A program made the translations under genes and the position numbers. The notes under the pieces are model-generated. The model saw nothing but the letters and a program-made list of their open reading frames with translations, was not told the DNA's origin and searched no databases. Shown piece by piece: positions 4,275-58,170 of a stretch of DNA of 64,000 nucleotides; the first letter of the stretch is position 1, and each line of letters begins with the position of its first letter. The DNA comes from Escherichia phage mogra: the sequence record MN850579.1; one strand, given 5' to 3'.

Positions 4275-4370
4275 AACGTAATTTGCTTTAAGAATTATGT
4301 GTTATTATTAATCTACCCTCTATTACCAAAGGTGCTCCCTCAAGTGCCTTTCATAATAGAAAGTTATTTA

Positions 4371-4445
4371 GGCCCTGTAGCTCAATGGGAGAGCTGTCAG
4401 CTCATAACTGATAGGTAGCTGGATCGAAACCAGCCAGGGCCACCA
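4371..4445 (+). tRNA. tRNA, anticodon CAU (Met or lysidine-modified Ile), with encoded CCA
   Basis: Cloverleaf by hand: acceptor GGCCCTG/CAGGGCC, D-stem GCTC/GAGC, anticodon loop CTCATAA, T-stem GCTGG/CCAGC, 3-prime ACCA. Confidence 0.8.
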
Positions 4446-4545
4446 ATTCGCGGTGAGTACGCTCTTAGGTAGGTAAGTTGTTCGAATAAGGGTTAAAAGT
4501 AGAACCTACAAACGAGTAACCCTGAAACACCCAAAGCCGCATCAT

Positions 4546-4622
<77 letters not shown>

Positions 4623-7000: not shown

Positions 7001-7594
7001 ATGAACACACTGAAGAAACTTGTTGAATTCATCCGCACTAAACTGGGTACTGCTATGGCTAAAAATCTGACTGTCGAAGAACAGTATAACGCAGCTGCAG
7101 ATAAGTTGATTACCCAAATCAAAGAACTAAAAACGGCTTCTGTTAAATCTATTAATGAAGAAAAACGTATTCGCGAACTTGTTAATGAAAAGAACAAGCA
7201 AGCCGCTTCTAAGGAACTTGAAATTCGTAAGCTCCTGGCTGAAGGACAAGATGTTACTATGCATGCTAAGCTTGGTCTTCTGTATCGTCGAACTGCCGAA
7301 CAACTTAATACAAAAGCTGACGGGTATGCCGCTATGCGAATTGAAATTGCTCGTAAGGTGGTTGAACTTGACGATGCTCGTCAGAACCTGGCAATCAAAC
7401 TCGAATACATTCGTGAAACTCGAGCAGCCAATGCCCTTGGTATCTCTACGGCCGATGATGTAATTGAAATCGCTGCACTGACTAAGGTTGATATCGAAGA
7501 CACTCTGACTCGTGTTGAAACGTTCAATGGCACTCCAGCCGGCGTCGAAACCACTTCTGCTGATGTACAAGAATATATTAACTCTTTGAAATAA
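7001..7594 (+). CDS. coiled-coil protein; weak PspA/IM30-like character
   Basis: Long heptad-rich helical sequence; ATG 7001 downstream of promoter cassette. Confidence 0.5.
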
Positions 7595-15902: not shown

Positions 15903-16442
15903 ATGAGAACATTTTTAACTGGTCCTTATCTATCCCTGATGAATGCTTTTACACACCATTCTGATGCTAGAGTAGAAGAAATTTGTAAGAATGGTTATGT
16001 CCCACCATTTGAAGACGTACTCAAGCAGTACTGTACACTTCGTTTAGACGGTGGCAGACAATCAGGTAAATCGTCCGCAGTAACTAATTTTGCTGTTAAT
16101 TGGCTATACGATGGTGGAACAGTTATTGTTCTTTCTAATACTTCAGCTTATGCTAAAATTTCTGCTGGCAACATTAAAAAAGAATTTTCTCGTTATTCTA
16201 GCGATGATATTCGATTCCGTTTATTTACTGATTCTGTTCGTAGTTTTATTGGCAATGAAGGTTCTAAATTCCGTGGATTAACGCTTTCTCGTATTCTGTA
16301 TATAATTGACGAGCCTATTAAAGCTCCTGATATGGATAAGATTTACAATGTCCACATTAAAACAGTACAGCACTGCTGCAAAAGCAAATATTGCATCGGC
16401 GGTAATGCTCGTCCTCAATTTTTTGTGATTGGAATGCAATGA
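15903..16442 (+). CDS. P-loop NTPase, function unknown
   Basis: Walker A GGRQSGKSS; Walker B-like LYIIDEP. Confidence 0.55.
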   Translation: MRTFLTGPYLSLMNAFTHHSDARVEEICKNGYVPPFEDVLKQYCTLRLDGGRQSGKSSAVTNFAVNWLYDGGTVIVLSNTSAYAKISAGNIKKEFSRYSSDDIRFRLFTDSVRSFIGNEGSKFRGLTLSRILYIIDEPIKAPDMDKIYNVHIKTVQHCCKSKYCIGGNARPQFFVIGMQ

Positions 16443-16747
16443 TGACCACTATTGAAGTTTTTGAGTATTGTTATAACAGCCCAGTATGCAATAAAAGGGC
16501 TCTTGTAGAAAATTACGAGATTTACCATTTTAAACCTAAACGATATCGTTTGACTAAAGGTCCGTTCGCAGGGCAGCAGGTTCTTTGTACTGCTCCTAAT
16601 GCACGGTTGATGACTAGTATTCCACATTTCAAAATGGAATTTATTGATGGGCCATTTAAGGGATTAATCACTCAAAGTTTAATGGCGTTTAATTCCGACC
16701 CATTTTTGATTAAAGAAAAATCTTGGATAAATTTATTTTCTAATTGA
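16439..16747 (+). CDS. hypothetical protein
   Basis: ATGA overlap; 102 aa. Confidence 0.5.
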   Translation: MMTTIEVFEYCYNSPVCNKRALVENYEIYHFKPKRYRLTKGPFAGQQVLCTAPNARLMTSIPHFKMEFIDGPFKGLITQSLMAFNSDPFLIKEKSWINLFSN

Positions 16748-16753
16748 GGTTAT

Positions 16754-17116
16754 ATGAAAGCATATCAAATTCTTGAAGGTACACATAAAGGCACTATTTA
16801 TTTTGAAGACGGTACTCAAGCCCGGATTATCGTCTCTAAGACTTTTAAAGAAGACTCTATTGTAGACCCGGAAATTTTCTACGGTTTGCATGCCCGTGAA
16901 ATTGAAATTGAACATCAACCTAAAGTTAAAATTGAAGGTGGTCAACATCTGAACGTTAACGTTCTGCGTCGTGAAACTCTGGAAGATGCAGTTAAGCATC
17001 CGGAAAAATATCCGCAGCTGACCATCCGTGTATCCGGTTATGCAGTTCGCTTTAACTCTCTGACTCCGGAACAGCAGCGCGACGTTATCGCTCGTACCTT
17101 TACTGAGAGTCTATAA
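16754..17116 (+). CDS. autonomous glycyl-radical cofactor (GrcA/YfiD-like; T4 Y06I-type)
   Basis: C-terminus [33 protein letters not shown] is the pyruvate formate-lyase / GrcA glycyl radical motif. Confidence 0.85.
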
Positions 17117-17340
17117 TGGCTAAATTGATTATAGAAGGGTCTGAAGATGTTTTAAAATGTTTTGCCGCCTGGTTTAGTTGCTCAGGCGAGCAATCATTCA
17201 TTGAAGCATTTAGAACGGGTGATATTACTGGAAACTATCCGACAACTGATATCACTGTACGTGGATATGGTATTAATGAGCCTATCCAATTGGTCGAATA
17301 TGACCTTGCCACCGATGAGGAAATTCCTTATGTCGATTGA
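17116..17340 (+). CDS. hypothetical protein
   Basis: TAATG coupling to upstream gene; 74 aa. Confidence 0.5.
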   Translation: MAKLIIEGSEDVLKCFAAWFSCSGEQSFIEAFRTGDITGNYPTTDITVRGYGINEPIQLVEYDLATDEEIPYVD

Positions 17341-24376: not shown

Positions 24377-24658
24377 ATGAAAAAATTAGTAATTGGTTTA
24401 TTCGCAGTAATGATGGCATTCTCTGTTGGTGCTACCACAGGTGCAACCGGCGGTAGTGCAGGAGCTGGTGGTAACCAGTCTTCTGGGCCTTCCAATGGTT
24501 CGGTAAATGCATCACATTCTCAGGGTATTGAGAATATCAGATCAAGCTATATTAATAGCACGGCCGGACAAGCAACTGAAGCATGGTCAAAGGGCCGAGT
24601 AGTTACTCGCTCCGTATTCTGTGATATGCCTAATTATGTTGCTAAGTGCGATAAGTAA
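24377..24658 (+). CDS. secreted Gly/Ser-rich protein
   Basis: Signal peptide MKKLVIGLFAVMMAFSVGA. Confidence 0.5.
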   Translation: MKKLVIGLFAVMMAFSVGATTGATGGSAGAGGNQSSGPSNGSVNASHSQGIENIRSSYINSTAGQATEAWSKGRVVTRSVFCDMPNYVAKCDK

Positions 24659-30807: not shown

Positions 30808-31160
30808 CATATTCATTAAATCTTAAAGATTTCCAAGATGTATACGAAGTTTGTGCCAATGAACTTGGTCCTGATGCTCCAACTATTATTGAAGTTTTAA
30901 ATGTGCTCCCTTCATCATTAGCTTACGAAGCCAAATCATGGGGTTGGAACGACACTGTCGTTCGTGATGACCTTTACGTCCTGATGAACGATATGATGGT
31001 TAAAAAGGCAGAACCGGTTGCACCAATGGTTACCATTACCGTTGAAGAATATAATCGCCTGCAAGCCATTGAAGAGCTTCTGTGGAACATTGAATGTGAC
31101 CTGCCGTCAGGGCTAGAATCCTGGATTGATTATGAAGAGCTCAATAAACTCCGGGGTTAA
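30804..31160 (+). CDS. hypothetical protein
   Basis: ATGA overlap; 118 aa. Confidence 0.5.
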   Translation: MTYSLNLKDFQDVYEVCANELGPDAPTIIEVLNVLPSSLAYEAKSWGWNDTVVRDDLYVLMNDMMVKKAEPVAPMVTITVEEYNRLQAIEELLWNIECDLPSGLESWIDYEELNKLRG

Positions 31161-31288
31161 GCCATGGTATTCGGCTCGATGGGAAACTGTCGAGCCAGAC
31201 GTCGAAACAGTTTACAACGACGAAGAAACGTGTTATGATGAACCTACAGTAAACGATATGATTGATTTGGAAATGGGAAGAGATTATT

Positions 31289-31921: not shown

Positions 31922-32395
31922 ATGTTATTATCAGGCGCAAAATATAAAGAAGAAAAACAAAAATTTTATGATGCACAGAACGGTAAGTGTCCTATTTGCC
32001 ACCGTGAATTAGACCCTGATGTTCAAGGTAACCATCTTGACCACGACCACGAATTAAACGGGCCAAAAGCTGGTAAGGTTCGTGGTTTACTATGTAACCT
32101 GTGCAATGCAGCAGAAGGCCAAATGAAGCATAAGTTCAACCGTTCTGGTCTTAAAGGTCAAAACGTTGATTACCTCGAATGGCTTGAATCTCTTCTTGCT
32201 TATTTGAAACAAGATTATTCTGATAATAATATCCATCCTAATTTTGTTGGAGATAAATCAAAGGAATTTTCTCGTTTAGGAAAAGAGGAAATGATGTCCG
32301 AGATGCTTCAAAGAGGATTTGAATATAATGAATCTGATACTAAAACACAATTAATAGCTTCATTCAAAAAGCAGCTTAGAAAGAGTTTAAAATGA
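31922..32395 (+). CDS. 49: recombination endonuclease VII gp49
   Basis: KCPICHREL..HLDHDHELNGPKAGKVRGLLCNLCN; near-identical to T4 endo VII. Confidence 0.92.
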   Translation: MLLSGAKYKEEKQKFYDAQNGKCPICHRELDPDVQGNHLDHDHELNGPKAGKVRGLLCNLCNAAEGQMKHKFNRSGLKGQNVDYLEWLESLLAYLKQDYSDNNIHPNFVGDKSKEFSRLGKEEMMSEMLQRGFEYNESDTKTQLIASFKKQLRKSLK

Positions 32396-34209
32396 AAATT
32401 GAAAAAGAAATTGAAGGATTAATTTATAAAACTAATAAAGATCTTTTGAACGAGAATGCTAATAAAGATTCTCGTGTTTTTCCAACTCAACGGGACCTTA
32501 TGGCTGGTATTGTGTCTAAGCACATTGCCAAAAATATGGTCCCGTCTTTTATTATGAATGCGCATGAAAGCGGAATCATTCACATGCATGATATTGATTA
32601 TTCTCCTGCTCTTCCGTTTACCAATTGCTGTTTAGTCGATTTAAAGGGGATGCTTGAGAATGGATTTAAATTAGGCAATGCTCAAATTGAAACGCCTAAA
32701 TCTATTGGCGTTGCTACTGCAATTATGGCACAAATTACCGCACAAGTTGCTTCACACCAGTATGGCGGAACTACATTTGCGAATGTCGATAAAGTTCTTT
32801 CTCCTTATGTTAAACGCACATACGCTAAACATATTGAAGATGCAGAAAAATGGCAAATCGCTGATGCGTTGAATTATGCTCAATCCAAAACAGAAAAAGA
32901 TGTCTATGACGCGTTCCAAGCTTATGAATATGAAGTAAATACTCTCTTTAGTTCAAACGGACAAACGCCTTTTGTAACAATTACATTTGGTACGGGAACT
33001 GACTGGACTGAACGAATGATTCAGAAGGCAATTCTTAAAAACCGCATTAAAGGTCTTGGTCGTGATGGAATAACTCCTATTTTTCCTAAACTTGTTATGT
33101 TTGTTGAAGAAGGTGTTAATCTTTATAAAGATGATCCAAACTATGATATTAAACAACTTGCGTTAGAATGTGCAAGCAAAAGAATGTATCCTGACATTAT
33201 TTCGGTTAAGAATAATAAAGCTATTACCGGTTCTTCAGTTCCTGTTTCTCCGATGGGTTGCCGTAGTTTTTTGAGTGTGTGGAAAGATTCGACTGGTAAT
33301 GAAATTCTTGATGGACGTAATAATCTTGGTGTTGTAACACTGAATCTTCCTCGTATCGCATTAGATTCTTATATTGGAACACAGTTCAATGAACAGAAAT
33401 TTGTTGAGCTATTTAACGAACGAATGGACCTGTGTTTTGAAGCCTTGATGTGTAGAATTAGTTCTTTAAAGGGTGTTAAAGCGACTGTTGCTCCTATTCT
33501 TTACCAAGAAGGTGCATTCGGTGTTCGTCTTAAACCTGATGACGATATAATTGAGTTATTTAAAAACGGTAGAAGTTCAGTGTCTTTGGGATACATTGGT
33601 ATTCACGAATTGAATATTCTTGTCGGTCGTGATATTGGGCAAGAAATTTTAACTAAAATGAATGCTCATCTTAAACAGTGGACTGAAAGAACCGGATTTG
33701 CTTTTAGTTTATATTCTACTCCTGCTGAAAACCTTTGTTATCGCTTCTGTAAACTTGATACAGAAAAATATGGAAGTGTAAAGGATGTTACAGATAAAGG
33801 CTGGTACACTAACAGTTTCCATGTTTCAGTAGAAGAAAATATTACTCCGTTTGAAAAAATTTCTCGTGAAGCTCCTTATCATTTCATAGCGACCGGCGGT
33901 CACATTTCTTATGTTGAACTTCCAGATATGAAAAACAATTTAAAGGGGCTTGAGGCCGTCTGGGATTATGCTGCACAACATTTAGATTATTTTGGTGTTA
34001 ATATGCCAGTGGATAAATGTTTTACATGTGGAAGTACCCATGAAATGACTCCTACTGAAAATGGATTTGTTTGTTCAGTTTGCGGAGAAACTGATCCTAA
34101 AAAGATGAACACAATAAGAAGAACATGTGGTTATTTGGGAAATCCGAACGAACGCGGATTTAATCTCGGTAAAAATAAAGAAATCATGCATAGGGTTAAA
34201 CACCAATGA
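32392..34209 (+). CDS. nrdD: anaerobic ribonucleoside-triphosphate reductase NrdD
   Basis: 605 aa; C-terminal glycyl radical motif RRTCGY and CxxC zinc site; uninterrupted (no intron). Confidence 0.93.
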   Translation: MKIEKEIEGLIYKTNKDLLNENANKDSRVFPTQRDLMAGIVSKHIAKNMVPSFIMNAHESGIIHMHDIDYSPALPFTNCCLVDLKGMLENGFKLGNAQIETPKSIGVATAIMAQITAQVASHQYGGTTFANVDKVLSPYVKRTYAKHIEDAEKWQIADALNYAQSKTEKDVYDAFQAYEYEVNTLFSSNGQTPFVTITFGTGTDWTERMIQKAILKNRIKGLGRDGITPIFPKLVMFVEEGVNLYKDDPNYDIKQLALECASKRMYPDIISVKNNKAITGSSVPVSPMGCRSFLSVWKDSTGNEILDGRNNLGVVTLNLPRIALDSYIGTQFNEQKFVELFNERMDLCFEALMCRISSLKGVKATVAPILYQEGAFGVRLKPDDDIIELFKNGRSSVSLGYIGIHELNILVGRDIGQEILTKMNAHLKQWTERTGFAFSLYSTPAENLCYRFCKLDTEKYGSVKDVTDKGWYTNSFHVSVEENITPFEKISREAPYHFIATGGHISYVELPDMKNNLKGLEAVWDYAAQHLDYFGVNMPVDKCFTCGSTHEMTPTENGFVCSVCGETDPKKMNTIRRTCGYLGNPNERGFNLGKNKEIMHRVKHQ

Positions 34210-34676
34210 ATTATGATAGATTTTATCCTTGCGATTTTGTGAATGGCCCTGGATGCAGGGTCGTTCTTTTCGTTACGGGTTGTTTGCATAAATGCGAAGG
34301 GTGTTATAATAAATCAACATGGAATGCTAGAAATGGTATTCCATTCACTGGTGAAACACTAGAACAATTAATTGAATGTTTGAATAATGATTATATAGAA
34401 GGATTAACTATAACCGGAGGTGACCCTCTCTATCCTGATAACCGAGATGTTATTCATTGCATTGTTCAAACAGTAAAAAATCTTTATCCCAATAAAAGCA
34501 TTTGGTTGTGGACAGGATATAAGTTTGAAGATATTAAACAACTAGAAATGCTTAAATATGTTGATGTTATTATTGATGGGAAGTATGAGAAAAATCTTCC
34601 GACCAAAAAGCTGTGGCGAGGATCAGATAATCAGCGGCTTTGGTCAAATACCGATGGGGTGTGGAAACATGATTAA
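34206..34676 (+). CDS. nrdG: anaerobic RNR activating protein NrdG (radical SAM)
   Basis: CLHKCEGC motif; ATGA coupling to nrdD. Confidence 0.88.
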   Translation: MNYDRFYPCDFVNGPGCRVVLFVTGCLHKCEGCYNKSTWNARNGIPFTGETLEQLIECLNNDYIEGLTITGGDPLYPDNRDVIHCIVQTVKNLYPNKSIWLWTGYKFEDIKQLEMLKYVDVIIDGKYEKNLPTKKLWRGSDNQRLWSNTDGVWKHD

Positions 34677-40666: not shown

Positions 40667-42351
40667 AATCATTTAAATTAAACCGTGTTCGTTATCAAAA
40701 CATCATGTCGGTAGGTGGGAATCCTATTGATATCCAATTAGATAAAGTCCAAAAGACATTAATCACTGGTAAAAATGGTGGTGGTAAATCTACGATGTTA
40801 GAAGCCATTACTTTCGGACTTTTCGGTAAACCATTTCGTGATGTTAAGAAAGGACAAATCATTAATAGCACGAACAAGAAAGAGCTCTTAGTTGAGCTTT
40901 GGATGGAATTCGATGATAAAAAATACTTCATTAGACGTGGCCAAAAGCCCAATATTTTCGAAATCTCCGTTGACGGTGTTCGTCTCGATGAATCTGCCAG
41001 CAGTCGTGACTTCCAAGAAGAATTTGAACGTAGCATCGGAATGTCATACGCGTCTTTTAAACAGATCGTTGTGCTTGGGACGGCAGGGTATACCCCTTTC
41101 ATGGCTCTTAGCACCCCTGCTCGTAGAAAACTTGTCGAAGACCTTTTAGAAGTCGGCACACTCGCTGAAATGGATAAAATCAATAAGTCTCAAGTTCGAG
41201 AACTTAATTCCCAGGGACAAGTTCTCGATGCCAAGAAAGATGGTGTTATCCAACAAATTAAGATTTATAACGAGAATATCGAACGTCAAAAGAAATTATC
41301 TGGTGATAATGTAGCGCGTCTACAGAATATGTATGACGACCTAGCCAAAGAAGCTCGTTCATTAAAAGCAGAAATCGAAGAAGCTAATGAGCGACTACTT
41401 AATATCGTTCTTGATGAAGACCCTACTGAGGCATTCAACAAGATAGGACAAGAAGCATTCTTGATTAAATCTAAAATTGACTCATACAACAAAGTTATTA
41501 AGATGTATCATGATGGCGGTACATGTCCTACTTGCGCATCACAGTTGCACCAGGGTGACCCTATTGTCTCTAAGATTACCGATAAGCTTCATGAATGTAA
41601 TCACTCATTCGAGCAACTTACCTGTCACAGAGATAATCTGAGTGTCCTAGTTGATGAATATAGAGCTAATGTTAAGACTAAGCAGGACCTTGCATCTGAT
41701 ATTCGTACCAAGAAACAAGCAATGATTGCCACTATTGATAAAGCTAAGAAAGTTAAAGCTGCAATAGAGCAAGCCTCAGCAGAATTTATCGACCATGCCG
41801 ATGAGATAGCTTTGCTTCAAAAAGAACTTGATAAAATCATTAAAACAAAATCGGATATCGTTCTTGAAAAATACCATCGTGGTATTATCACAGATATGTT
41901 AAAAGATTCTGGTATTAAAGGTGCTATCATTAAAAAATATGTGCCTCTGTTCAACAAGCAGATTAACCATTATCTTAAAATTATGGAAGCCGATTACGTG
42001 TTTTCTATTGACGAAGAATTCAATGAATCTATAAAATCACGTGGTCGTGAAGAGTTCAGTTATGCTTCATTTAGTCAAGGTGAAAAAGCACGTATCGATA
42101 TCGCGCTGTTGTTTACATGGCGAGATATTGCTGAAAAGGTTTCTGGTGTTAGAATTAATACATTAATTATGGACGAAGTCATGGATTCCGCGACTGATTC
42201 TGAAGGTATTAAAGCTATTTCAACAATTCTTAACTCTCTAACCGATGCAAACGTGTTTATAATTAGTCACAGAGACCATGACCCACAAGCTTATGGACAA
42301 CATCTTCAAATGAGCAAAGTTGGACGATTTACTGTGATGACTGTTTCATAA
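40663..42351 (+). CDS. 46: recombination endonuclease subunit gp46 (Rad50/SbcC-like ATPase)
   Basis: Walker A GKNGGGKST; coiled-coil middle; CPTC zinc hook; signature and Walker B near C-terminus. Confidence 0.93.
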   Translation: MKSFKLNRVRYQNIMSVGGNPIDIQLDKVQKTLITGKNGGGKSTMLEAITFGLFGKPFRDVKKGQIINSTNKKELLVELWMEFDDKKYFIRRGQKPNIFEISVDGVRLDESASSRDFQEEFERSIGMSYASFKQIVVLGTAGYTPFMALSTPARRKLVEDLLEVGTLAEMDKINKSQVRELNSQGQVLDAKKDGVIQQIKIYNENIERQKKLSGDNVARLQNMYDDLAKEARSLKAEIEEANERLLNIVLDEDPTEAFNKIGQEAFLIKSKIDSYNKVIKMYHDGGTCPTCASQLHQGDPIVSKITDKLHECNHSFEQLTCHRDNLSVLVDEYRANVKTKQDLASDIRTKKQAMIATIDKAKKVKAAIEQASAEFIDHADEIALLQKELDKIIKTKSDIVLEKYHRGIITDMLKDSGIKGAIIKKYVPLFNKQINHYLKIMEADYVFSIDEEFNESIKSRGREEFSYASFSQGEKARIDIALLFTWRDIAEKVSGVRINTLIMDEVMDSATDSEGIKAISTILNSLTDANVFIISHRDHDPQAYGQHLQMSKVGRFTVMTVS

Positions 42352-56727: not shown

Positions 56728-58170
56728 GTGGTAGAAATTATTTTGTCTCATCTCGTATATGACCAGGCTTATTTTTCTAAGGTCTGGCCTTATATGGATT
56801 CTGAGTATTTTGAGCGTGGACCGGCAAAAAACGTCTTTAAAATTATAAAGAGCCACGTTAACGAATATAATGCAATGCCATCTATCAATGCATTAAAGGT
56901 GGCTTTAGATAACAGTTCTTTAACTGAAGCCGAATATAAAGGAACTTCAGACCTAATTGAAAAATTGGCTGATACTCCTGAAGACCACGAATGGTTGGTT
57001 AAAGAAACTGAGAAATATGTCCAGCAAAAAGCGATGTATAATGCTACGTCTAAAATCATTGAGATTCAGTCTAATGCTGAACTACCTCCAGAACAACGTA
57101 ACAAGAAAATGCCCGACGTAGGAGCTATTCCTGATATTATGCGTCAAGCACTTTCAATTTCGTTTGATAGTTATATTGGGCATGACTGGATGGAAGACTA
57201 TGAAGCACGCTGGCTTTCTTATCTGAACAAAGCACGTAAGGTCCCGTTCAAATTAAACATTTTGAATAAAATCACCAAAGGCGGCGCAGAAACAGGTACA
57301 CTAAACGTTTTAATGGCTGGTGTTAACGTCGGTAAATCTTTAGGCCTTTGTTCACTTGCTGCAGATTATCTTCAAACAGGTCATAATGTTCTTTATATTT
57401 CAATGGAAATGGCTGAAGAAGTTTGTGCTAAGCGTATAGATGCAAACATGCTTGACGTATCACTCGATGATATTGATGATGGTAACGTATCTTATGCTGA
57501 ATATAAAGCCAAGATGGAAAAATGGCGTTCAAAAACAACATTAGGACGTTTAGTAGTTAAACAGTATCCTACTGGTGGAGCTAATGCTAATACATTTCGT
57601 GCATTGCTTAATGAGTTAAAACTTAAGAAGAACTTTGTGCCATCTGTAATCATGGTTGATTACTTAGGTATTTGTGGGTCTTGTCGTATCAGAGTTTACA
57701 CTGAAAATAGCTACACATTAGTTAAAGCTATCGCAGAAGAACTTCGTGCATTAGCAGTAGAATCTGAAACAGTTCTATGGACTGCAGCTCAAGTAGGACG
57801 TGCAGCATGGGATGCTTCAGACATGAACATGAGTGATATCGCAGAATCAGCAGGTTTACCAGCAACGGCAGATTTCATGTTGGCTGTAATTGAAACCGAA
57901 GAACTTGCACAAGCTGAACAACAACTTATCAAACAAATCAAATCACGATACGGCGATAAGAATAAGTGGAATAAATTCCTGATGGGTGTACGTAAAGGCA
58001 ATCAGAAATGGGTTGAGATTGAGCAAGAAGGCATGAACACACCTAACACAGTAAATGAAAACGCAGGTGCTCAGATGCGTCAGGCAGAGGTGAATCGTAC
58101 GGAACGCGTAGGTAAAGCCAAAGCAACACGTGCTGACCTAGATAGCTTAGCCAATGAGTTAAAATTTTAA
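56728..58170 (+). CDS. 41: replicative DNA helicase gp41 (DnaB-like)
   Basis: MVEIILSHL..DQAYFSKVWPYMDSEYFE matches T4 gp41; Walker A GVNVGKSLG; GTG start. Confidence 0.93.
   Translation: MVEIILSHLVYDQAYFSKVWPYMDSEYFERGPAKNVFKIIKSHVNEYNAMPSINALKVALDNSSLTEAEYKGTSDLIEKLADTPEDHEWLVKETEKYVQQKAMYNATSKIIEIQSNAELPPEQRNKKMPDVGAIPDIMRQALSISFDSYIGHDWMEDYEARWLSYLNKARKVPFKLNILNKITKGGAETGTLNVLMAGVNVGKSLGLCSLAADYLQTGHNVLYISMEMAEEVCAKRIDANMLDVSLDDIDDGNVSYAEYKAKMEKWRSKTTLGRLVVKQYPTGGANANTFRALLNELKLKKNFVPSVIMVDYLGICGSCRIRVYTENSYTLVKAIAEELRALAVESETVLWTAAQVGRAAWDASDMNMSDIAESAGLPATADFMLAVIETEELAQAEQQLIKQIKSRYGDKNKWNKFLMGVRKGNQKWVEIEQEGMNTPNTVNENAGAQMRQAEVNRTERVGKAKATRADLDSLANELKF

Follow-up and report, generated by a model that had tools for sequence, protein, structure and literature searches.

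In the 64,000-nucleotide (nt) stretch of Escherichia phage mogra analysed here (MN850579.1; hereafter the window), the open reading frame (ORF) at 16754..17116 on the plus strand is the vs.6/Y06I gene of a Mosigvirus (RB69-like T-even) phage, a homologue of the E. coli gene grcA (yfiD). It encodes 120 amino acids (aa) from an ATG start and joins a phage-type head (16754..16931, codons 1-60), delimited by composition and by alignment with YfiD and phage T4, to a 175-nt patch (16932..17106) almost identical to grcA of the host. We suggest, with a probability of roughly 0.7, that the protein acts as a spare part for oxygen-damaged pyruvate formate-lyase (PFL) and that recurrent host-to-phage gene conversion keeps its catalytic module identical to that of the host. 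Both the gene and what it does biochemically have been on record since 2001, through T4 Y06I. In the searchable literature we found no description of nucleotide-level host tracking for vs.6/Y06I, which is not proof that it is unreported.

At the protein level, residues 61-120 are identical to residues 68-127 of E. coli GrcA at 60 of 60 positions, bearing out the first-pass annotation, which had noted a near match over the last 60 or so residues. In the codon alignment with E. coli grcA, a sharp break is found at 16931/16932. Before it most codons differ and indels are present, and from 16932 to 17106 there is one mismatch in 175 nt (16948, T versus C), leaving 158 nt (16949-17106) in unbroken identity. 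Each of the last three codons, which with the stop form a 3' edge at 17107..17116, carries one synonymous difference (GAG AGT CTA versus GAA AGC CTG in E. coli). By blastn, nt 141-363 of the gene matched grcA with 91.9% identity in all 5426 complete E. coli genomes, while no nucleotide match to these genomes was found 5' of nt 141.

Megablast of the 64-kb window against E. coli genomes returned a sole matching segment, 16932-17121/17124, with 96.4-97.4% identity to grcA and a second match to pflB (79.3%). The other 42 kb had no E. coli match in this search. The few nucleotides past the stop codon were considered as host homology and discarded, as comparison with T4, T2 and the Jiaodaviruses identifies them as the conserved start of the next phage gene (TAATGGC…); the sequence 3' of the stop is unrelated to the 3' flank of E. 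coli grcA. Among the best 80 bacterial loci, drawn from at least 600 stretches and not including Klebsiella pneumoniae, the last 60 codons are 97.8% identical to E. coli, 96.7% to another Escherichia species and at most 90.6% to Citrobacter, Salmonella and 75 other taxa. By its nucleotide sequence, the donor of the tail is evidently E. coli itself.

Such identity could in principle be old, with a single grcA acquisition by a T-even ancestor followed by purifying selection that preserved even the codons. Conservation of the tail protein is extreme across all homologues, phage and bacterial; two aa differ between the E. coli and Klebsiella versions. Many E. coli high-expression codons also coincide with phage preferences, and the GC content at third codon positions (GC3) of the patch is not extreme. 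However, Cronobacter phage leB encodes the same 60-residue tail as E. coli and differs from it at 29 of 180 nt, against 4 of 180 in the window (Fisher p=4e-6). In about 70 other phage homologues (from Karamvirus, Slopekvirus, Pseudotevenvirus, Krischvirus, T5-like, Aeromonas and jumbo phages), the identity of the tail to the best bacterium is no more than 70-84%, and exact runs are shorter than 60 nt. In addition, the patch has a deficit of third-position changes relative to the head when the window is compared with T4 (1 of 57 versus 13 of 59; p=0.001), and the GC3-rich Klebsiella-type tail found on the AT-rich head of Jiaodavirus is not attainable by drift. Protein constraint is thus insufficient to account for the nucleotide identity of the patch with E. 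coli, and we regard preservation by selection since an ancient acquisition as highly improbable.

The comparison with other T-even phages shows how the patch differs from the rest of the gene. The vs.6 protein and T4 Y06I are both 120 aa long and differ at 5 aa (95.8% aa and 93.9% nt identity), while the flanking genes of the window are 71-85% identical to T4 at the nucleotide level. Within vs.6, the differences from T4 are concentrated in the head (17 of 178 nt) rather than in the patch (2 of 175 nt; p=5e-4). In nine Mosigvirus and Tequatrovirus alleles, genus-specific sites are found in the head and in the last 10 nt, the last codon being CTA in Mosigvirus and TTG in Tequatrovirus; the 3' edge therefore lies outside the homogenised tract. 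The differences of the patch from E. coli in these alleles are mostly private singletons, with changes at 16948 and 17104 each present in two alleles. Such a distribution would be expected if host sequence had replaced the interior of the patch after the separation of the genera and had spared the edges.

The same data could be produced by one host-to-phage event per host species, followed by spread from phage to phage between Mosigvirus and Tequatrovirus, with a separate event in Jiaodavirus. T-even phages recombine readily, the 5' boundary is common to all records, and the head too is closer between the genera (90%) than the flanking genes (71-85%), hinting that vs.6 is exchanged between phages. 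On the other hand, the sites in the head and in the last 10 nt are genus-specific and the patch alone is uniform, so that exchange between phages would have to break repeatedly at the exact edges of host homology. The patch variants, being mostly private singletons around the E. coli allele, do not form phage clades, and at least two independent captures (E. coli and Klebsiella) are needed anyway. We consider a single event with subsequent spread unlikely as the whole explanation.

The Klebsiella phages provide the second capture. In Jiaodavirus, whose heads are 72% identical in aa to the head of the window, GC3 is 0.60-0.63 in the tails versus 0.23-0.25 in the heads. Over the last 60 codons, the window, T4 and T2 differ from E. 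coli at 3-4 positions and from Klebsiella at 23-25, while the Jiaodaviruses differ from E. coli at 25-30 and from Klebsiella at 9-16. The K. pneumoniae grcA used here was obtained by a 32-mer scan of metagenomes and a look-up of the exact protein. The 32-mer, taken from a Jiaodavirus tail, was present in 31 metagenome stretches, 27 of them of bacterial type (GC 0.47-0.58, most of them 0.53-0.58), and the GrcA protein of their main allele is exactly that of K. pneumoniae (GRCA_KLEP7). The metagenomic Jiaodavirus L183 has a perfect run of 158 nt with Klebsiella grcA and its 5' boundary at the same codon as in the E. coli type, its differences from Klebsiella grcA being limited to the last 25 nt or so. 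The K. pneumoniae-type tail matches 106 phage records of Klebsiella and Raoultella at 95-99%, and the E. coli phages at 80-90%. Since drift cannot take an AT-rich phage to a GC-rich sequence specific to Klebsiella, host sequence must have been captured independently at least twice on the same backbone. The tail module thus tracks the host, the same head being joined to a tail of E. coli type in E. coli phages and of K. pneumoniae type in Klebsiella phages.

In a search with E. coli grcA, 752 phage records were matched, 638 of them at 95% or more (best 99.5%) and 106 at 80-90%; apart from one partial record, all of them begin to match at grcA nt 199-202. These records also bear on a trivial origin of the pattern, in which host reads or a chimeric assembly placed E. 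coli sequence in the phage contig. A perfect 158-nt identity to the propagation host is just what contamination would look like. Nevertheless, the reading frame is kept across the junctions, some 640 independent phage records (the T4, T2 and RB references among them) show this mosaic with an identical boundary, and the Klebsiella phages carry the Klebsiella-type tail instead. We give an assembly artefact almost no credence. Identity beyond protein constraint, a sharp breakpoint and host-specific tails on a shared phage backbone were all found, and they support a mosaic gene whose C-terminal glycyl-radical module is recently host-derived. The proposal of a chimeric gene made from the sequence alone is borne out by the 175-nt near-copy and by the leB control.

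The compositional break on which that proposal had leaned is real yet moderate, and the nucleotide identity is the decisive evidence. The GC content is 0.486 in the patch, 0.354 in the head and 0.372 in the window, placing the patch in the top 0.2% of 175-nt windows (z=3.0). GC3 is 0.40 in the patch and 0.25 in the head, but the GC3 of the patch and its codon likelihood under phage usage reach only about the 11th-14th percentile, and composition and codon usage were consequently rejected as a decisive test. The weak codon signal is due to the overlap between E. coli high-expression codons and phage preferences. A host-like codon choice had been claimed for CTG, CGT, CCG and CAG: it holds for CTG (5 of 6 Leu codons versus 11% in the phage, p=9e-5), CCG (3 of 3) and CAG (3 of 4), while CGT is the preferred Arg codon of the phage itself (55%) and does not discriminate. 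The higher GC of the C-terminal part is therefore confirmed, though its contrast with phage DNA is weaker than had been implied.

The patch is one of 7 equally GC-rich 175-nt islands in the window. The six others (4366-4561, 7369-7562, 24395-24624, 31055-31232, 40946-41170 and 57978-58152) have no E. coli megablast match. The island at 4366-4561 holds tRNA-Met (4371-4445) and tRNA-Arg (4546-4622) genes.

Family assignment of the vs.6 product agrees with its origin in the GrcA group. The Pfam domain Gly_radical (PF01228) is found at residues 59-101 (E=2.3e-18; 67.1 bits versus a cutoff of 22.2), confirming the glycyl radical domain seen at the end of the ORF in the first pass. Among PDB sequence matches, YfiD (6OWR) aligns with residues 21-120 (E=1.4e-42), and PFL 696-759 aligns with residues 57-120, radical glycine included (E=2.8e-26). 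The tail is about 80% identical to PflB 700-759. The patch encodes the structured Gly-radical module, in which phage residues 61-117 correspond to YfiD 68-124. The predicted radical glycine, Gly95 (GGT, 17036..17038), is the equivalent of YfiD G102 and PFL G734 and lies in the RVSGYAV motif (residues 92-98), as read from the codon table and the alignment with PFL and YfiD. Proteins of the spare-part family are small (about 14 kDa), stand alone and end in a domain of this kind with the same motif. The window gene is 99.4% identical at the nucleotide level to a gene of Mosigvirus vB_Eco_F27 annotated as autonomous glycyl radical cofactor, and its orthologue in T2 and T4 is vs.6, named autonomous glycyl radical cofactor GrcA in RefSeq. 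T4 also shares the E. coli-identical 3' patch and the gene order vs.7/vs.6/vs.5/regB/vs.1. It belongs to Tequatrovirus and the window copy to Mosigvirus, with heads 17 of 178 nt apart and CTA instead of TTG as the last codon.

One family result goes in the other direction. Against NCBIfam TIGR04365 the protein scores 158 bits, under the cutoff of 170, which is an operational threshold curated for the bacterial GrcA equivalog. The shortfall is caused by the diverged N-terminal half, which scores 12.6 bits alone. We place the gene with the phage (Y06I) members of the GrcA spare-part family rather than among the bacterial GrcA equivalogs. The identity of a full-length PFL was also tried and rejected: residues 55-120 align with TIGR01255 at 89.6 bits versus a cutoff of 994, in a protein of only 120 aa. 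Full-length PFL (PflB/TdcE) has about 760 aa and a ten-stranded barrel with the catalytic Cys418/Cys419, and vs.6 has no barrel; it shares PFL 696-759 with RVSGYAV, so that only the last 64 residues of PflB/TdcE are represented. The labels pyruvate formate-lyase, acetyltransferase and ribonucleotide reductase (RNR) subunit, present in many phage records, are misnomers for the vs.6-type gene.

The head had been described as phage-like in the first-pass annotation, and this stands as regards its divergence and low GC (0.354). It is not an unrelated part, however. The head is colinear with YfiD 28-67 (35% aa identity; pairwise BLASTP E=1e-6), and TIGR04365 is its sole, weak NCBIfam match (E=0.12, 12.6 bits). 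An unrelated or foreign phage domain was ruled out by this colinear alignment and by the GrcA-only family match. The head is likely homologous to YfiD's N-terminal half, and vs.6 then reads, from its alignments, as a full-length grcA homologue with an old diverged head and a young patch. Its 5' limit falls at YfiD residue 68, in effect where the structured domain (YfiD 61-127) starts; this domain has the fold of PFL 693-759 (PMC8683613). The phage head corresponds to the disordered half of YfiD, whose residues 1-60 are required for the binding and activation of cleaved PFL (cPFL) (PMC8683613). Both the E. coli and the phage protein thus combine a poorly conserved N-terminal half with a structured Gly-radical module and share 60 C-terminal residues and 175 near-identical nt. 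They differ in the N-terminal half, only 35% identical with indels, and in length (120 versus 127 aa); moreover, the phage gene lies in a co-directional block of a virulent phage and not beside ung. The NCBIfam models GrcA2 (NF008341) and GrcA3 (NF038360) describe proteins of 78-80 aa with little beyond the tail module. Bacteria thus have spare parts that lack a head, which bears on the purpose of the phage head.

The proposed function comes from the orthologues. According to the account given in PMC8683613 of Wagner et al. (2001, BBRC 285:456), the PFL activase installs the radical on E. coli YfiD as well as on T4 Y06I, and both proteins restore activity to oxygen-cleaved PFL. G734 of PFL is both the radical and the cleavage site (PMC8683613). 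By orthology with T4 Y06I and YfiD/GrcA, the phage protein would be made after infection and host PflA would install the radical on Gly95; the structured C-terminal module would then replace the C-terminal piece of PflB lost on cleavage at G734 by oxygen. The supply of fermentative acetyl-CoA, formate and ATP may in this way be sustained in the infected cell, at a time when the host presumably no longer resynthesises PflB or GrcA.

During infection, fragments of host grcA most likely recombine repeatedly with the phage gene, in a conversion tract bounded on both sides by the ends of phage-host homology. Tracts cannot exceed this homology, hence the fixed 5' boundary and the diverged last codons, and since the patch is the sole host-homologous stretch of the window, such conversion is confined to it. 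Every round would restore the homology that enables the next one. A further step is to regard the vs.6 module as being in ongoing concerted evolution with the grcA of the current host, forming a self-renewing host-species barcode in a virulent phage with modified DNA and keeping the spare part matched to PflB and PflA. To this extended proposal we give an even chance.

A different target was suggested in the first-pass annotation, namely the repair of the anaerobic ribonucleotide reductase NrdD of the phage itself after cleavage by oxygen. NrdD is indeed encoded about 15 kb downstream, as stated there (nrdD, 32392-34209; nrdG, 34206-34676; about 15.3 kb from vs.6), both NrdD and NrdG are in the window, a grcA-like gene adjoins nrdD or nrdG in some distant phages, and spare parts for other glycyl radical enzymes have been speculated on (PMC8683613). 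However, a spare part has to resemble the C-terminus that its target has lost, and vs.6 aligns with the NrdD of the window only at BLASTP E=6.2. The NrdD C-terminus, RRTCGYLGNPNERGF, is unrelated to the vs.6 tail, and no NrdD chain is present among the PDB sequence matches at E<=1. The tail is identical to host GrcA and was copied from a PFL-specific host gene, and experimental support exists for PFL rescue alone. The repair of NrdD is not supported by these results, and we consider it very unlikely.

The distant phages in question are Yersinia jumbo phage fHe-Yen9-04 (L094, 1-957) and the Aeromonas phages PX29 and phiAS5, where the grcA-like gene is found one gene from nrdD, or beside or overlapping nrdG. 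Their tails are still of the PFL type, and the proximity to nrdD/nrdG could reflect anaerobic co-regulation. T5-like phages (Demerecviridae; e.g. AKFV33, L093, 601-969) have a grcA-like gene of 122 aa in the tRNA region. Their heads start with MKAYQ, as the T-even heads do, and their tails are only about 75% identical to any bacterium. Annotations of these T5-like genes are inconsistent (acetyltransferase-related, ribonucleotide reductase subunit, 2-ketobutyrate formate-lyase).

Besides the score against TIGR04365, several points weigh against spare-part function combined with recurrent conversion. The conversion step is read from sequence patterns, and the biochemical function is carried over from the T4 orthologue. 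Only limited homology flanks the tract (10 nt at the 3' end, 64% identity upstream), which makes the first capture hard to account for. Krischvirus, Slopekvirus and T5-like phages, which are other genera infecting E. coli or Klebsiella, do not have a host-like tail, so the conversion process is not general. Compared with the Klebsiella allele, the 180-nt tail has 16 differences in KP182 and 10 in PSE-D1, so that these conversions are older or their donor is unsampled. Spread of one converted allele among co-infecting phages could be a part-cause of the similarity between Mosigvirus and Tequatrovirus. Under the proposed conversion, the matching of host residues could be either adaptive or a by-product of recombination.

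Around the gene, a Shine-Dalgarno-like GAGG was read from the sequence at 16746..16749 on the plus strand, 4 nt 5' of the vs.6 start and overlapping the TGA stop (16745-16747) of the upstream ORF (16439-16747). That ORF has 102 aa and aligns with T4 vs.7 only in its 3' half (16576-16747; 85.5% over 52% of vs.7), being apparently also a mosaic between genera. Downstream, a vs.5-like ORF of 74 aa (17116..17340, plus strand) overlaps the TAA stop of vs.6 in TAATG, with its ATG at 17116. It is 73.5% identical to T4 vs.5 at the nucleotide level, and host homology ends there. The synonymous changes at the end of vs.6 were considered as a ribosome-binding site (GAGAG) for this ORF, an idea weakened by T4 having the E. 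coli base at 17107. A promoter and terminator scan around vs.6 gave hits no more numerous than in shuffled sequence.

Some database records deserve caution. The vs.6 protein is filed as GrcA of Escherichia coli or Salmonella enterica on contigs of 165-169 kb (P0024, P0026 and P0029) that are whole T-even phage genomes inside bacterial assemblies, and a few blastn matches fall on E. coli "plasmids". In AP018813.1 (Escherichia phage T2), "tail sheath monomer | tail tube protein" is annotated under vs.6, and the annotation seems shifted relative to the sequence. A Jiaodavirus-like contig of 167,034 nt from IMG/VR (L121, 301-659) has a frameshift in vs.6 after residue 42 or so, the product then ending in AETFMATRRVK; this could be a pseudogene or a sequencing error. 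Among bacterial records, an enterobacterial grcA (at most 92% protein identity to E. coli) is present in a genome labelled Vagococcus sp. WN89Y (L032), a Gram-positive genus, and another on the 275-kb "plasmid unnamed4" of Klebsiella sp. WOUb02 (L023). Mislabelling, contamination or a chromid are likely for the Vagococcus and plasmid-borne copies.

The closest parallel is found in the photosynthesis genes of cyanophages. Work by Zeidner in 2005 reportedly described host-phage intragenic recombination in cyanophage psbA and psbD. In these genes, %G+C is patchy and segments have been exchanged with the host copies in T4-like phages (Sullivan et al. 2006, PMC1484495). As in psbA/psbD, vs.6 has a patch of host-type GC inside a gene otherwise of phage type, and this segment varies with the genus of the host. 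In contrast to psbA/psbD, the vs.6 tract is single, sharply bounded at about 175 nt and nearly 100% identical to one named host species. It is also fixed in hundreds of enterobacterial T-even phages with a clear host-to-phage direction, whereas in psbA the signals are more diffuse and run in both directions.

As an annotation the result brings nothing new, and the general interest is modest, becoming moderate if recurrent host-to-phage conversion is true; the evolutionary pattern may merit a short study. Under recurrent conversion, vs.6 would be a clean and quantifiable case of gene conversion from a host to a virulent phage in the best-studied phage group, with an internal control, since old head and young patch share one ORF, and a reciprocal replication, the E. 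coli tail in about 640 phage genomes and the Klebsiella tail in about 106. A homologue of vs.6/grcA is present in 1588 phage records, and the energy supplied by PFL under fluctuating oxygen therefore matters to many enterobacterial phages. The pattern suggests that a close match of the spare part to host PflB and PflA is required, and that, in nature, homologous exchange with degraded host DNA happens often enough to homogenise a tract of 175 nt. It also suggests that the tail sequence may be usable as a host-genus marker for uncultured T-even phages.

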